Below are positions 45,001-51,000 of a stretch of 51,153 nt of DNA, one piece after another. Made by a program: the position numbers. This stretch comes from a virus. Taxonomy: Duplodnaviria; Heunggongvirae; Uroviricota; Caudoviricetes. Numbering within the stretch: position 1 is the stretch's first letter; every line of letters starts with the position of its first letter. The stretch lies in the IMG/VR virus record IMGVR_UViG_2939521961_000005. The stretch is one strand, 5' to 3'.

Positions 45001-48000
45001 TTATGACAGCCCGCCTGTTCAGGCGGGCTTTTTTGTGGGGTGAATATGGCAGTAAAGATTTCAGGTGTACTGAAAGACGGCACAGGAAAACCGGTACAGA
45101 ACTGCACAATCCAGCTGAAAGCAAAACGTAACAGTACCACTGTGGTGGTGAACACGCTGGCCTCAGAAAATCCGGATGAAGCCGGGCGTTACAGCATGGA
45201 CGTTGAGTACGGTCAGTACAGCGTTATTCTGTTGGTGGAGGGATTCCCGCCGTCACATGCCGGGACCATCACCGTGTATGAAGATTCTCAACCGGGTACG
45301 CTGAATGATTTTCTCGGTGCCATGACGGAGGATGATGCCCGTCCGGAGGCTCTGCGTCGTTTTGAACAGATGGTGGAAGAAGCAGCGCGTCACGCAGAGG
45401 AGGCGAAGAAGAATGCCGGAGAAGCAGAGACGTCCGCGAGGAATGCCGGCATATCAGCCAGTAAGGCGGAAGCGAGCGCCGCAAATGCTGATACTTCAGC
45501 AGAGGATGCATCGGAGTCAGCCCGGCAGGCGGCAGAAAGTGCAGCCTCTGCAAAGAAGTCAGAGGAAGCGTCCTCGTCCTCAGCCTCTGAGGCCGCTCAA
45601 AAAGCCAGTGAGTCATTACAAAGTGCAACAGATGCCGAGTTGTCAAAAAAGACGGCAGAAAGTGCAGCCGGTAATGCATCCAGAGACGCAACGACAGCAA
45701 CAGAAAAAGCCCGGGAGTCAGCAGAAAGCGCACAGTCAGCGGAACAAAGCAGGATAGCGGCGGAAGAAGCCGTAAACCGAATCCCCACCGTGGTGGGGCC
45801 ACCCGGGCCAAAGGGAGATCCGGGGCCCGCGGGTCCTCAGGGGCCGAAGGGAGATAAAGGAGAGCGTGGCGACACCGGCCCGGCAGGGGCAACTGGTGAA
45901 CGGGGGCCGGCAGGTGATGCTGGTCCGGCAGGCCCGCAGGGGCCGAAAGGCGACAGGGGAGAGCGGGGAGAGACCGGTCTGACGGGAAATGCAGGTCCAC
46001 AGGGGCCAAAGGGAGATACCGGTGCGGCAGGCCCGGCTGGCCCACAGGGACCGAAAGGAGAAACAGGTGCGGCTGGCCCGGTGGGGGCAACCGGACCTCA
46101 GGGACCAAAGGGCGACCCGGGGGAGACACAAATCCGTTTTCGTCTGGGGCCGGCGAGCATTATTGAGACAAACAGCAATGGCTGGTTCCCGGGTACAGAT
46201 GGTGCGCTCATCACCGGACTGACCTTTCTTGACCCCAAAGATGCCACACAGGTTCAGGGGCTGTTTCAGCATTTGCAGGTCAGGTTTGGTGACGGGCCGT
46301 GGCAGGATGTTAAGGGGCTTGATGAAGTGGGCAGTGATACAGGCAGAACAGGAGAATGACAGTAACCGGCTCATTTAAACCGTCTGGTCTGTTTCCTCCG
46401 GCTCTACAAAAATAATGTCCATCATTTTTAATGGACACTATCGTATGAAACACCGGACCTGGATCACTGAAGCTTTACGTCTTCACTTTGAAGAACATTT
46501 ACCCCGGGTTGTGGCCGGGCGTCGCCTGGGTGTACCAAAATCAACAGTTTGTAGTATGTTCGTGCGCTTTCGGAGAGCTGGCCTTTCGTGGCCTTTGCCC
46601 GCAGGCATGTCGGAGCAGGAACTTGATGCCTGCCTTTACGGACAATTTTCCACGGTACCAGTCGTACGTCCTGAAAGCACCGTTATATCCGAAGCCCCCG
46701 TGGTAAAAAAACGTCCCCGGCGGCCCAACTTCCCTTATGAGTTTAAAATCGCCTTAGTGGAGCAGTCACTGCAGCCCGGAGCCTGTGTGGCGCAGATCGC
46801 CCGGGAAAACGGAATCAACGATAACCTGCTCTTCAACTGGCACCATCAATACCGGAAAGGTGGCCTGCTGCCTTCCGGAAAAAATATGCCGGCACTGCTT
46901 CCCGTGACGTTAACGCCGGAGCCGGATAATAAAATCCCGGCCCCCGCACAGGAACCAGAGCAGATAAATACACCGTCCGACAGTCTGTGTTGTGAGCTGG
47001 TTCTGCCGGCCGGAACTCTCAGGCTTAAAGGTAAACTGACGCCGGCGTTATTACAGACACTTATCCGCGAAATAAAAGGGAGCAGCCACTGATGATATCT
47101 CTCCCTGCAGGTTCGCGTATCTGGCTGGTTGCAGGTATCACCGATATGCGAAATGGCTTTAACGGCCTGGCATCAAAAGTTCAGAACGTCCTGAAGGATG
47201 ACCCGTTCTCCGGACACCTGTTCATCTTCCGCGGACGCCGGGGTGACCAGATAAAAGTGTTGTGGGCTGACAGTGACGGACTGTGCCTCTTCACCAAACG
47301 CCTGGAGCGGGGCCGCTTCGTCTGGCCAGTCACCCGTGACGGCAAGGTGCACCTTACTCCGGCTCAGTTATCCATGCTTCTTGAAGGTATCAACTGGAAG
47401 CACCCGAAACGAACGGAACGCGCTGGAATCCGCATATAACCCGTTGTAAAGTGAGGATATGGACACCTCACTTGCTCATGAGAACGCCCGCCTGCGGGCA
47501 CTGTTGCAGACGCAACAGGACACCATCCGCCAGATGGCTGAATACAACCGCCTGCTCTCACAGCGGGTGGCGGCTTATGCTTCCGAAATCAACCGGCTGA
47601 AGGCGCTGGTTGCGAAACTGCAACGTATGCAGTTCGGTAAAAGCTCAGAAAAACTTCGTGCAAAAACCGAACGGCAGATACAGGAAGCACAGGAGCGAAT
47701 CAGCGCACTTCAGGAAGAAATGGCGGAAACGCTGGGTGAGCAATATGACCCGGTACTGCCATCCGCCCTGCGCCAGTCTTCAGCCCGTAAACCGTTACCG
47801 GCCTCACTTCCCCGTGAAACCCGGGTTATCCGGCCGGAAGAGGAATGCTGTCCTGCCTGTGGTGGTGAACTCAGTTCTCTGGGATGTGATGTGTCAGAGC
47901 AACTGGAGCTTATCAGCAGCGCCTTTAAGGTTATCGAAACACAACGTCCGAAACAGGCCTGTTGCCGGTGCGACCATATCGTGCAGGCACCAGTACCTTC

Positions 48001-51000
48001 AAAACCCATTGCACGCAGTTATGCCGGAGCGGGGCTTCTGGCCCATGTTGTCACCGGGAAATATGCAGACCATCTGCCGTTATACTGCCAGTCAGAAATA
48101 TACCGTCGTCAGGGAGTGGAGCTGAGCCGTGCCACACTGGGGCGCTGGACAGGTGCTGTTGCTGAACTGCTGGAGCCGCTGTATGACGTCCTGCGCCAGT
48201 ATGTGCTGATGCCCGGTAAAGTCCATGCTGATGATATCCCCGTCCCGGTCCAGGAGCCGGGCAGCGGTAAAACCCGGACAGCCCGGCTGTGGGTCTACGT
48301 CCGTGATGACCGTAACGCCGGTTCACAGATGCCCCCGGCGGTCTGGTTCGCGTACAGTCCGGACCGGAAAGGTATCCATCCACAAAATCACCTGGCCGGT
48401 TACAGCGGTGTGCTTCAGGCCGATGCTTACGGTGGTTACCGGGCGTTATACGAATCCGGCAGAATAACGGAAGCCGCGTGTATGGCTCATGCCCGGAGAA
48501 AAATCCACGATGTGCATGCAAGAGCGCCCACCTACATCACCACGGAAGCCCTGCAGCGTATCGGTGAACTGTATGCCATCGAGGCAGAGGTCCGGGGCTG
48601 TTCAGCAGAACAGCGTCTGGCGGCAAGAAAAGCCAGAGCCGCGCCACTGATGCAGTCACTGTATGACTGGATACAGCAACAGATGAAAACACTGTCGCGT
48701 CACTCAGATACGGCAAAAGCGTTCGCATACCTGCTGAAACAGTGGGATGCACTGAACGTGTACTGCAGTAATGGCTGGGTGGAAATCGACAACAACATCG
48801 CAGAGAACGCCTTACGGGGAGTGGCCGTAGGCCGGAAAAACTGGATGTTCGCGGGTTCCGACAGCGGTGGTGAACATGCGGCGGTGTTGTACTCGCTGAT
48901 CGGCACATGCCGTCTGAACAATGTGGAGCCAGAAAAGTGGCTGCGTTACGTCATTGAACATATCCAGGACTGGCCGGCAAACCGGGTACGCGATCTGTTG
49001 CCCTGGAAAGTTGATCTGAGCTCTCAGTAAATATCAATACGGTTCTGACGAGTCGCTTACGAATGACATGAACATACTAAAAAAACTTATGCAGCGTATG
49101 TGTGGTTGCGGAAAGCATGATGGCCGTGAACACGTGCAGTCGCTTACAGCACAGCTGCGACTGGGACCGGCAGACATTCTGGAGTCCGATGAGAATGGCA
49201 TTATCCCGGAGCAGGACAGGGTAATCACGCAGGTGGTGATACTGGATGCGGATAAAAAGCAGATACAGTGCGTGGTAAGACCGCTGCAAATTCTGCGTGG
49301 TGACGGGACGTGGGAAAATATTGGCGGGATGAAGTAACTCGACAGCTTCACAAAACCGGAGTCCGGCTCCATTTTACCACCTCCACGGGAGGTGGTTGCT
49401 TGCAATCAGATGTTTCGGGCCTGCGGCTTTTTGTGTTCCCTAGTAAGTGGTTACTATTCTTTTATGTTATTCCTCTCTGTATCTATTGTCTTAGATAGCC
49501 ATATGAGTTCAGATGCTGAGAGTTTTAATTGTGGTGTTCTGTCTCCTGCTCCGGGTGGACGCATGTCAAAAGTGCAGGATTTTCTGCTGAATACTGTGTA
49601 GTCATTCATAGAGCATGTTGTTGAGGTTAGTGTACAATTCTTCGATACTGGCTTGTCCTGCACAGGTCCGGATATTTCTGGGTAGCTTCCTTTTGAATTT
49701 GAAAATATGTTTTTGATTGAAAATGGCATCGTGCTTTGTCCTTTGAACTACGATATATTGTTTTGTGTTCTTTCGTTGTGAGTAGGTATCATTAAGAATA
49801 CTTATATGTGGCTCCAGAGTATTTGGGTTTGTAGTCTTTCCACTCTGGTGCGCCTAATATTTTTTCTGCTGGTATCTCTTTCCCACGCAAGTAAAACTTT
49901 ATGTTTTTCATTATCTGGTCGTTGTCTTTGTTGCGATAAATCCATCGTAATTCGCTGGCAGTAATACTCTGACCATAACCATCTGACTTATTAGCAATGA
50001 GTTTGAGTGAGTTGACAATCTCGTCAGCACAAAAAATAACCGTTTTGTTGCGTGTTAATGTCTGAAACTCCAGGCCGGCCTTGCTTGTTTTTGCCCATAA
50101 TTTGTCGCGATTGTATACGCAAAGGTCGGCCATGGTGACATTATAATTATTGTGGCTCTTTAGGTGTTGTTTAAATTTTATCCCTCTTTCGTGTTCATTT
50201 AATGCTCTTTTGATCAGTGGATCTTGCTTATATTTGCGAGGTGTTCTGGGGTCCCATACTGCGTTTGTTAACGTATTCTGAGTTATAATATCTTTTTTGG
50301 AAAAGTCGTTAACTAGTTTAATGCTGTTGACAAGTTTTTCTCTGGGTGAAGATAGTCCATAGACAATGTCTCCCTCGCGAAAGTGTAAGGCCACATCCAG
50401 AGCGTTGCCCTGAAAGGTGATGTTTTTTGCTTTAACTACATCTGGAGAGAGTAGTACATTTTGTAAATCAAGATCCAGCCCATCAGGCATCCCTTCAACA
50501 CCGATGTTCCACGTGGTTTTCTGCTCCGCATGAATGGTTACCGATGTCACACTCTCCGGAAGTATCTCCGGCAGTATAATATTGCTACATCCAGTCAGCG
50601 ATAGCGTCTGCAGTGACGGTGATATCAGGTTGTCAATTCTGGCCTGATTCTCCGGGTTATAGCTATTGATGCTGAGAGATGATAACCCGTTTGGAACATT
50701 TTTTATGCTGTCTGTGGCGCTACCTTTTATCTCAAGGTAGCGGACGCTCTCTGGCACTCCAGATATATGGCAGCGACAAACCGTCAGGCATTCGATGCCT
50801 TCAGGTATGATGTGTATAAATGGTGAATCAGTTAATTCAATATGTAGATTTTTTACTGTCGATGGTATGTCTGTGATTTGTAATTTTTCACAGTTAATGA
50901 CGGAGAGGTTTTGTGTATTAACCGGCAATCCTGTAAGGATTGTCAGGTTGTTGCAGTTTTCGATTGTAACTGATGTTATTTCGTTTGGTAACTGTGGCAG

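Follow-up and report, generated by a model that had tools for sequence, protein, structure and literature searches.

The window, that is, the whole stretch of 51,153 bp that was analysed, matches the prophage of E. coli O26:H11 that carries espK. Within it, a side tail fibre gene and a small gene for a stand-alone PF06820 (PfC) protein are separated by an insertion sequence (IS), which is flanked by two copies of an 8-bp target duplication (TSD). The features are as follows.

45046-46359, + strand: stf, EPclA-type side tail fibre gene, 437 aa, intact (Pfam; RefSeq WP_000279108.1)
46354-46361, no strand: left TSD copy, GAATGACA, including the stf stop codon TGA (46357-46359)
46362-49060, + strand: complete IS66-family IS, apparently of the ISCro1 type, 2,699 bp between the two TSD copies
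46362-46383, + strand: left terminal inverted repeat (IR), GTAACCGGCTCATTTAAACCGT (repeat search)
46415-47092, + strand: tnpA, accessory HTH protein, 225 aa (PF01527; NF038385, 293 bits, cutoff 150)
47092-47439, + strand: tnpB, IS66 accessory protein, 115 aa (PF05717; NF033819, 129 bits, cutoff 50)
47459-49030, + strand: tnpC, DDE transposase, 523 aa (PF13007, PF13005, PF03050, PF13817; NF033517)
49039-49060, - strand: right terminal IR, reverse complement GTAAGCGACTCGTCAGAACCGT
49061-49068, no strand: right TSD copy, GAATGACA; its final A (49068) opens the downstream ATG
49068-49337, + strand: stand-alone PfC gene, 89 aa, ORF intact (Pfam E = 6.4e-36; RefSeq WP_001023483.1)

The terminal IRs of the IS66 family are imperfect, about 20-30 bp long, and start with 5'-GTAA. 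Those of the element are of this kind: they are 22 nt long, imperfect (16 of 22 positions identical), and both begin with GTAA. The three genes lie on one strand and all score above the curated IS66 thresholds. The TnpC protein comprises a leucine zipper, a zinc finger, the DDE_Tnp_IS66 domain (PF03050, E = 1.4e-101), and an IS66 C-terminal domain, and it reached 472 bits against the NF033517 equivalog (cutoff 180). The tnpA stop and the tnpB start overlap in TGATG (47090-47094). The other hallmarks of the family, namely a TnpC-type DDE transposase, overlapping upstream tnpA and tnpB, an 8-bp TSD, and multiple near-identical copies, are all present. Every ORF and both ends of this copy are intact, and it is 100% identical to copies elsewhere. 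The first-pass annotation had placed an IS66-family element at the junction of the stf stop and the next ATG, and both the ends and the genes proved typical of that family.

ISCro1 is an IS66-family element first named in Citrobacter rodentium ICC168 and widespread in E. coli. Identical copies of the present element and of its TnpC carry the PGAP label 'IS66-like element ISCro1 family' (transposase), and at this locus the element has its annotation in RefSeq already (NC_013361.1, NZ_AP027185.1). ISCro1 is 2,699 bp long with an 8-bp TSD (PMC12115866). From the PGAP family label and the matching 2,699-bp length, the element appears to be of the ISCro1 type; no difference was detected in length, TSD, or tnpA-tnpB-tnpC order. 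Like this element, ISCro1 is multi-copy and frequent in prophages and islands. When species-representative genomes were scanned for the exact 24-nt left end, matches were obtained in Escherichia sp. MOD1-EC7003, Citrobacter sp., and two MAG contigs, and C. rodentium was not among them, so the element may be an E. coli isoform of ISCro1. The Citrobacter sp. copy is 94.8% identical to the element, and identity reaches 99.9% in a free-standing contig of 2,699 bp. On the C. rodentium plasmid pCROD1, no IS66 gene is annotated in the first 50 kb, and BLAST found nothing there that matched the element. IS679, ISEc8, and ISEc23 are reportedly IS66-family elements of pathogenic E. coli, known from the 2001 work of Han and colleagues in J Bacteriol and from ISfinder; they likewise have three ORFs, a tnpA/tnpB overlap, GTAA IRs, an 8-bp duplication, and a length of 2.4-2.7 kb. 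They are separately named elements, and IS679 and ISCro1 are listed apart for C. rodentium.

The 8-mer GAATGACA occurs twice in the whole window, and both occurrences flank the IS. Uninterrupted relatives have a single GAATGACA in the context ...GGAGAATGACATG..., as in the espK-carrying prophage of O121 RM8352, where the stf TGA is followed by one C and the ATG. The uninterrupted stf|PfC junction was found in 697 complete E. coli genomes and in 292 phage records, VT1-Sakai and phage 2851 among the latter. Population matches placed the boundary of the IS at the same point (IS-only matches begin at 46362, and phage-only matches stop at 46361). The spacing between stf and the 89-aa ORF is 2,708 nt with the IS and 1 nt without it. 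The duplication had been described from the outset as holding the stf TGA and supplying the A of the ATG, with both flanking ORFs intact and about 2.7 kb apart; the coordinates, the measured spacing, and the comparison with the uninterrupted prophage of O121 RM8352 all agree with that description.

The best explanation of these observations is that an ISCro1-type IS66-family element transposed once into GAATGACA between stf and the PfC gene and that the insertion then spread (probability about 0.92). The target spanned the stf stop codon and the first base of the PfC gene, the two genes with which the late operon ends. Staggered cleavage and repair duplicated these 8 bp, and owing to the duplication both coding sequences are unchanged. 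The lambdoid prophages of these genomes are mosaics, there are 5-22 IS copies per genome, and the 11368 prophage lies between potC and tRNA-Ser/hya, all of which would suit an IS that is a recombination joint, left where an IS-mediated or homologous exchange between two IS copies joined stf and the downstream region of different prophages. However, such an exchange between independent copies would leave non-matching flanks, whereas the 8-bp duplication around the element is perfect, and removal of the IS and one repeat restores the exact O121 junction of a collinear stf-PfC-espK prophage; an origin by exchange is therefore scarcely credible.

The spread of the insertion was followed in complete genomes. 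The same insertion junction is present in 132-140 of them, O103:H2 and O45:H2 included, and the annotated stf-IS-PfC-espK layout of O103:H2 12009, 2011C-4251, and O45:H2 FWSEC0003 is that of the window. In two aligned copies (O103:H2 12009 and 2011C-4251), the IS agrees with that of the window at all but one position (2698 of 2699), and so does the right flank (1499 of 1500). On the left side, the following segment is shared.

46108-46361, + strand: last 254 bp of stf, identical among O26, O103:H2, and O45-type IS carriers (alignment)

Upstream of ~46107, the IS-bearing copies diverge by ~6% in stf, and ~46107 marks a recombination breakpoint in the gene. The occupation of one site in three serotypes with stf ~6% different upstream would also be expected if the stf/PfC junction were a hot spot, hit independently in O26 and in O103/O45 at the same 8 bp. 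This is highly improbable, as the aligned copies are nearly identical across the IS, its right flank, and the shared end of stf, whereas paralogous empty sites differ by 3-5%; the pattern therefore argues for one event and a recombination breakpoint, not recurrence. Since the junctions are identical and stf contains a breakpoint, we infer that one insertion event was spread by descent or by homologous recombination between prophages (O26:H11, O103:H2, O45:H2). Of 5,426 complete genomes, 1,493 contain 80% or more of the element, at up to 34 places per genome. Copies elsewhere are 100% identical in many E. coli genomes, including at an unrelated locus, and a copy at another locus has the TSD TAACAAGA/TAACAAAA.

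The stf gene is 1,314 bp long, the same as in VT1-Sakai, 2851, and 2B8. Its product consists of a PF08400 N-domain, an Ala/Ser/Glu-rich coiled-coil, a 111-aa collagen triple helix, and a PF06820 C-terminal trimerisation domain, in this order. In a sequence search of solved structures, the N-terminal 94 residues matched chain 9e7m_Ta ('Tail fiber protein'), presumably a lambda protein, and beyond these residues and collagens nothing was matched. Lambda Stf is about 774 aa long and is not known to have a collagen domain or a PfC domain. The lambda stf-tfa pair occupies the same place, closing the late operon downstream of J and lom, and a small gene directly follows the fibre gene in both cases; in lambda its product is Tfa, whereas here it is paralogous to the C-terminal domain of the fibre itself. 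EPclA, a collagen-like fibre of EHEC prophages, is also 437 aa long (Ghosh et al. 2012; PMC3368898). In that paper, EPclA is divided into PfN, PCoil, Col (111 aa), and PfC; the lengths in its Table 2 match those of stf, the stf C-terminus ...GSDTGRTGE is the sequence encoded by the EPclA cloning primer, and no difference is seen for the fibre itself. In the experiments described there, PfC trimerises and nucleates the collagen helix. Term searches of PMC3368898 found nothing on a stand-alone PfC gene after EPclA. The fibre had been noted as much shorter than lambda Stf; the length of 437 aa holds, but it is no peculiarity of the locus, as the architecture is that of canonical EPclA, with no truncation.

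The 89-aa protein is 40% identical to the C-terminal domain of Stf (Stf residues 364-425, E = 1e-12, BLASTP) and aligns with phrog_576 'tail fiber protein' over positions 1-89 of 89. PF06820 and phrog_576 were its sole family matches; it matched neither the Tfa family nor any NCBIfam model. The homologue search returned a narrow family of 176 clusters; the 120 that were listed come from E. coli, E. albertii, and C. rodentium and bear uninformative names. No match for the PfC domain was obtained in the sequence search of solved structures, and the AlphaFold2 model (20-sequence alignment) was too poor for fold searching (mean pLDDT 55, pTM 0.37). The ORF is intact in every IS carrier examined. 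If the gene truly started upstream and overlapped stf, the IS would truncate it. Longer forms overlapping the stf 3' end have been annotated (VT1-Sakai H0003, 129 aa; 2851 and 2B8, 102 aa), and in uninterrupted copies the reading frame is open upstream. Yet the ATG lies 1 nt past the stf stop with a strong, well-spaced Shine-Dalgarno sequence (SD), the PHROG profile has exactly the 89 positions of the protein, 89 aa is the PGAP gene call, and the largest three clusters of 89-aa proteins comprise 718, 1,266, and 1,362 members. The Citrobacter rodentium homologue starts even later, and the Pfam domain begins only at residue 28. An upstream start is thus quite improbable. A programmed frameshift joining stf to the 89-aa frame was also considered and rejected, as there is no evident slippery site and the ATG has a strong SD of its own.

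With the coding sequences preserved, an effect of the insertion would lie in expression, for which two further features are relevant.

46350-46354, + strand: AGGAG, native SD of the 89-aa gene, inside the stf 3' end, 2.7 kb from the ATG with the IS
49417-49439, + strand: terminator-like hairpin with a T-run, 3' of the 89-aa gene, where the late operon probably ends

Anti-SD pairing for the 89-aa gene is -7.4 kcal/mol in the native arrangement and -2.5 kcal/mol in the interrupted one, and the TGA-C-ATG stop/start coupling to stf is lost by the insertion. Because the SD and the coupling are now 2.7 kb away, translation of the 89-aa gene is likely to be strongly reduced, as judged from the sequence. 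A transcriptional uncoupling is doubtful, since the IS lies in sense relative to the operon, no terminator-like site is predicted on the + strand inside it, and a Q-like antiterminator gene is encoded in the window (13778-14320). Transcription probably still reaches the 89-aa gene, through read-through from tnpC or Q-antiterminated late transcription, and late transcription on prophage induction would also transcribe tnpABC in sense. A scan of 44900-49800 found no consensus promoter, which says nothing about IS-borne or outward promoters. The first-pass claim that the insertion uncouples expression of the downstream gene thus stands for the SD and the stop/start coupling and is doubtful for transcription.

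Transcripts from tnpC or the late promoter might even be translated adequately in the absence of a canonical SD, and the insertion would then have no effect on the 89-aa gene. The tnpC stop is only 37 nt from the ATG with no predicted terminator between them, both MFE folds leave the A-rich start region ATGAACATACTAAAAAAAC unpaired, and all carriers examined have kept the ORF. Against this, AGGAG was lost and not replaced, the best remaining pairing is mis-spaced besides being weak, and the coupling to a well-translated upstream gene is gone; an insertion of no consequence for expression is consequently somewhat unlikely. Polar IS insertions in operons, suppressed by lambda N/Q antitermination, are said to have been described by Adhya and colleagues in 1974 and by Forbes and Herskowitz in 1982. 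There, likewise, an IS lies between co-transcribed, translationally coupled genes. The present operon differs in being a Q-type antiterminated late operon, for which weak transcriptional polarity is therefore expected, and the demonstrable loss is that of a ribosome-binding site.

The prophage is lambda-like, carries espK, and is decayed. Its capsid and portal genes are flagged as frameshifted; the capsid frameshift is a 1-bp difference, conceivably an assembly error, although PGAP flags this frameshift in NIID080884 as well. A second IS, an IS600-like element, is present. The prophage is defective, and given the frameshifted genes and the second IS, the most likely status of the insertion is that of a neutral passenger, carried along as the prophage decays. 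It is an ordinary insertion of an element already annotated, not new biology, and its interest beyond bookkeeping is small. We consider it unlikely that the stand-alone PfC is a required partner of EPclA and the insertion a natural hypomorph, with an SOS-coupled burst of tnpABC in addition. Were this so, the stand-alone PfC would be a subunit that caps the fibre, a factor in its assembly, or a receptor-binding tip that can be exchanged, and in the O26, O103, and O45 lineages the shared ISCro1 insertion would silence the function of the side tail fibre of the espK prophage. An induction-driven tnpABC burst would tie transposition of the IS to the SOS response, which would help to explain the accumulation of this IS in prophage regions.

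In hundreds of EHEC/Stx phages, a separate gene right after the fibre gene encodes a paralogue of the C-terminal trimerisation domain of the fibre. The geometry of the insertion is that of a textbook case, in which an 8-bp duplication keeps two abutting ORFs intact and the second of them loses its ribosome-binding site. The insertion can be used as a typing or phylogenetic marker of the prophage segment common to O26:H11, O103:H2, and O45:H2.

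The junction between the stop codon of the side-tail-fibre gene (stf) and the next ATG is occupied by an IS66-family element, and the region was confirmed to match the first-pass annotation exactly. The features were as follows.

Features at the stf junction (coordinates, strand where given, description)
45046-46359: stf, 437 aa, with PF08400, an Ala/Ser/Glu-rich region, collagen repeats and a complete PF06820 C-terminal domain (Pfam); 3' end ...ACA GGA GAA TGA
46354-46361: left copy of the target-site duplication (TSD), GAATGACA
46362-46383 and 49039-49060: terminal inverted repeats, 16/22 positions matching, both starting with GTAA
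46415-47092, +: tnpA
47092-47439, +: tnpB, overlapping tnpA via TGATG
47459-49030, +: tnpC
49061-49068: right TSD copy, GAATGACA, its final A being the A of the downstream ATG
49068-49337: 89-aa ORF, beginning at the ATG that shares the last A of the right TSD

The 8-mer occurs only twice in the 51,153-bp window, on either side of the element, and the two copies are separated by 2,699 bp. A pair of 8-mers could also arise as a chance repeat, and this was ruled out by single-copy empty sites and by the boundaries of database matches. With the element and one repeat taken out, the junction is that of an empty site present in 697 complete E. coli genomes and 292 phage records, VT1-Sakai, phage 2851, 2B8 and Evi among them. 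In the collinear stf-PfC-espK prophage of O121 RM8352 (PfC, the C-terminal trimerisation domain PF06820), the site reads ...CAGGAGAATGACATGAA..., with the 8-mer present once and a gap of 1 nt between TGA and ATG. When a 160-bp query over the left junction was searched, matches to the element only started at 46362 and matches to phage only stopped at 46361. A copy of the element at an unrelated locus was flanked by TAACAAGA/TAACAAAA.

Membership of the IS66 family is firm. In Pfam, TnpA matched HTH_Tnp_1, TnpB matched TnpB_IS66, and TnpC matched LZ, zinc-finger, DDE_Tnp_IS66 (E = 1.4e-101) and IS66 C-terminal element models; each of the three proteins scored above the curated cut-off of its NCBIfam IS66 equivalog model. 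Copies 100% identical over the entire 2,699 bp occur in many E. coli genomes; of 5,426 complete genomes, 1,493 carry at least 80% of the element, at a maximum of 34 places per genome. Its boundaries were independently supported by a 2,699-bp metagenome-bin contig, 99.9% identical from end to end. The evidence for the specific name ISCro1 is indirect: the PGAP label ("IS66-like element ISCro1 family") and agreement in length and duplication size with a published ISCro1 insertion (2,699 bp, 8-bp duplication; PMC12115866). The left end of the element was also seen at many contig ends of the Escherichia sp. MOD1-EC7003 draft genome (among loci L012-L046), implying that its copy number has expanded greatly in that genome. 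The element was present, too, in bins carrying the labels Segatella copri and Clostridiales (L017, L037); the contig in the Clostridiales bin is precisely the 2,699-bp element, and this copy most likely reflects mis-binning.

The window is collinear with a prophage of E. coli O26:H11 str. 11368 (NC_013361.1, about 1,473,273-1,523,160), and the part from stf through the element to PfC-espK was 100% identical in strains NIID080884 and 2010C_3902. In RefSeq the IS genes, all three of them, and the genes on either side are already annotated at this prophage locus, so the locus was already known, as was the IS itself, and the pathogen lineage is well studied. The IS junction was found in 132 genomes and the 3.7-kb interval in 140. 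The same stf-IS-PfC-espK layout is annotated in O103:H2 12009, 2011C-4251 and O45:H2 FWSEC0003, of which the first two were aligned to the window. Both carried the same TSD, with differences at 1 of 2,699 positions in the element and 1 of 1,500 in the right flank, while the left flank was identical only over the final 254 bp at the stf 3' end (46108-46361); farther upstream the O26 copy diverged from them by ~6%. A hot spot struck repeatedly was rejected on the near-identity of the element, the right flank and the stf 3' end in these copies. The alignments argue instead for a single insertion that was then inherited or spread by recombination, with a breakpoint where the collagen repeats end. 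This breakpoint, at 46107/46108 inside stf, is sharp, and the O26 and O103:H2/2011C-4251 copies are essentially identical for 4.45 kb downstream of it, through the element into espK. No full-length empty-site match of at least 99% identity was present in the genome collection searched, so this specific allele seems always to bear the element there. In 11368, potC-potD lie on the integrase side of the prophage (around 1,472,000 of NC_013361.1), and a tRNA-Ser, a tail-fibre-assembly gene remnant and hyaABC lie beyond espK (around 1,523,800). As pot and hya are presumably not adjacent on the K-12 map, these flanks would point to a chromosomal rearrangement mediated by the prophage, or to remnants of prophages in tandem.

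The fibre had been described as much shorter than lambda Stf. It is shorter, but this is not a peculiarity: the gene is complete and of the standard EPclA type, and its length of 1,314 bp is shared by VT1-Sakai, 2851 and 2B8. Ghosh et al. 2012 (PMC3368898) give EPclA a length of 437 aa, of which 116 form a coiled coil and 111 a collagen stretch, and demonstrated that its PfC domain trimerises and nucleates the triple helix; the architecture of the window Stf is the same. The lom-stf gap contains a strong intrinsic-terminator-like hairpin (45008-45029; 9 pairs, then TTTTTT) 17 nt upstream of the stf start, so antiterminated polymerase would account for most transcription of stf and the 89-aa gene.

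The insertion had been proposed to uncouple the 89-aa gene from the tail-fibre operon. This was supported with a refinement: the uncoupling is better described as a loss of the translation-initiation region, with the transcript probably kept. Being part of stf, the native ribosome-binding site (AGGAG, 46350-46354) remains to the left of the element, the TGA-C-ATG coupling is lost, and anti-SD pairing before the ATG changes from -7.4 to -2.5 kcal/mol. By eye, no SD motif preceded the in-frame ATGs at codons 8 and 11 of the ORF. A strong drop in translation of the 89-aa gene is thus expected. Transcripts probably still extend into it, because the element lies in operon orientation, no terminator-like site was predicted on the + strand in 45030-49416, the ATG follows the tnpC stop after just 37 nt, and a Q-like antiterminator is encoded at 13778-14320. 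Polarity is reportedly suppressed by Q-modified polymerase, a finding attributed to Forbes and Herskowitz in 1982.

Since the prophage is decayed at the sites listed next, the insertion probably has no biological impact.

Further lesions in the prophage (coordinates, description)
22258-23521: second IS, IS3-family IS600-like, 1,264 bp, with ORFs 22322-22624 and 22660-23478
27275-29211: major capsid/prohead protease gene, 1-bp deletion relative to O26:H11 11368, frame lost after about codon 43
29423-32007: portal gene, two overlapping ORFs (29423-30787 and 30784-32007)

The same capsid gene is flagged as frameshifted by PGAP in NIID080884, as is the portal copy of 11368, to which the portal region is 100% identical. 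Combined, the split portal and the capsid defect suggest a prophage unable to build heads. Internal repeats at 162-bp spacing were noted in the portal region (31009-31541). The IS600-like element has the ends TGAGGTAGCC...ACACCTCA and lies between the two copies of a 3-bp duplication, TGC (22255-22257 and 23522-23524). It is not at the corresponding position in 11368, by the annotation of which the site is intergenic, in the lysis region.

The 89-aa product of the conserved stand-alone gene is a PfC domain (Pfam E = 6.4e-36) with 40% identity to Stf residues 364-425, and phrog_576 covers it over positions 1-89 of 89. The homologue family is narrow (176 clusters), the hosts among the 120 clusters listed being E. 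coli, E. albertii and C. rodentium, and no function was recorded among the clusters listed. Longer forms overlapping stf appear in some depositors' annotations; the ATG at 49068 is favoured over these by its strong SD, the length of the PHROG profile, the large clusters of 89-aa proteins and the later start in C. rodentium. The 27 residues preceding PfC (MNILKKLMQRMCGCGKHDGREHVQSLTA; 49068-49150) contain a C-x-C-x2-H-x4-H cluster, which could be a metal-binding site, and CGCGK within this N-terminus is retained in most homologues, including that of C. rodentium. In one database protein, P0065, collagen repeats pass straight into a PfC of the downstream-gene type. This protein looks like a deletion or recombination product of the fibre collagen region and the stand-alone gene, and hints that the downstream gene is able to serve as a replacement fibre tip.
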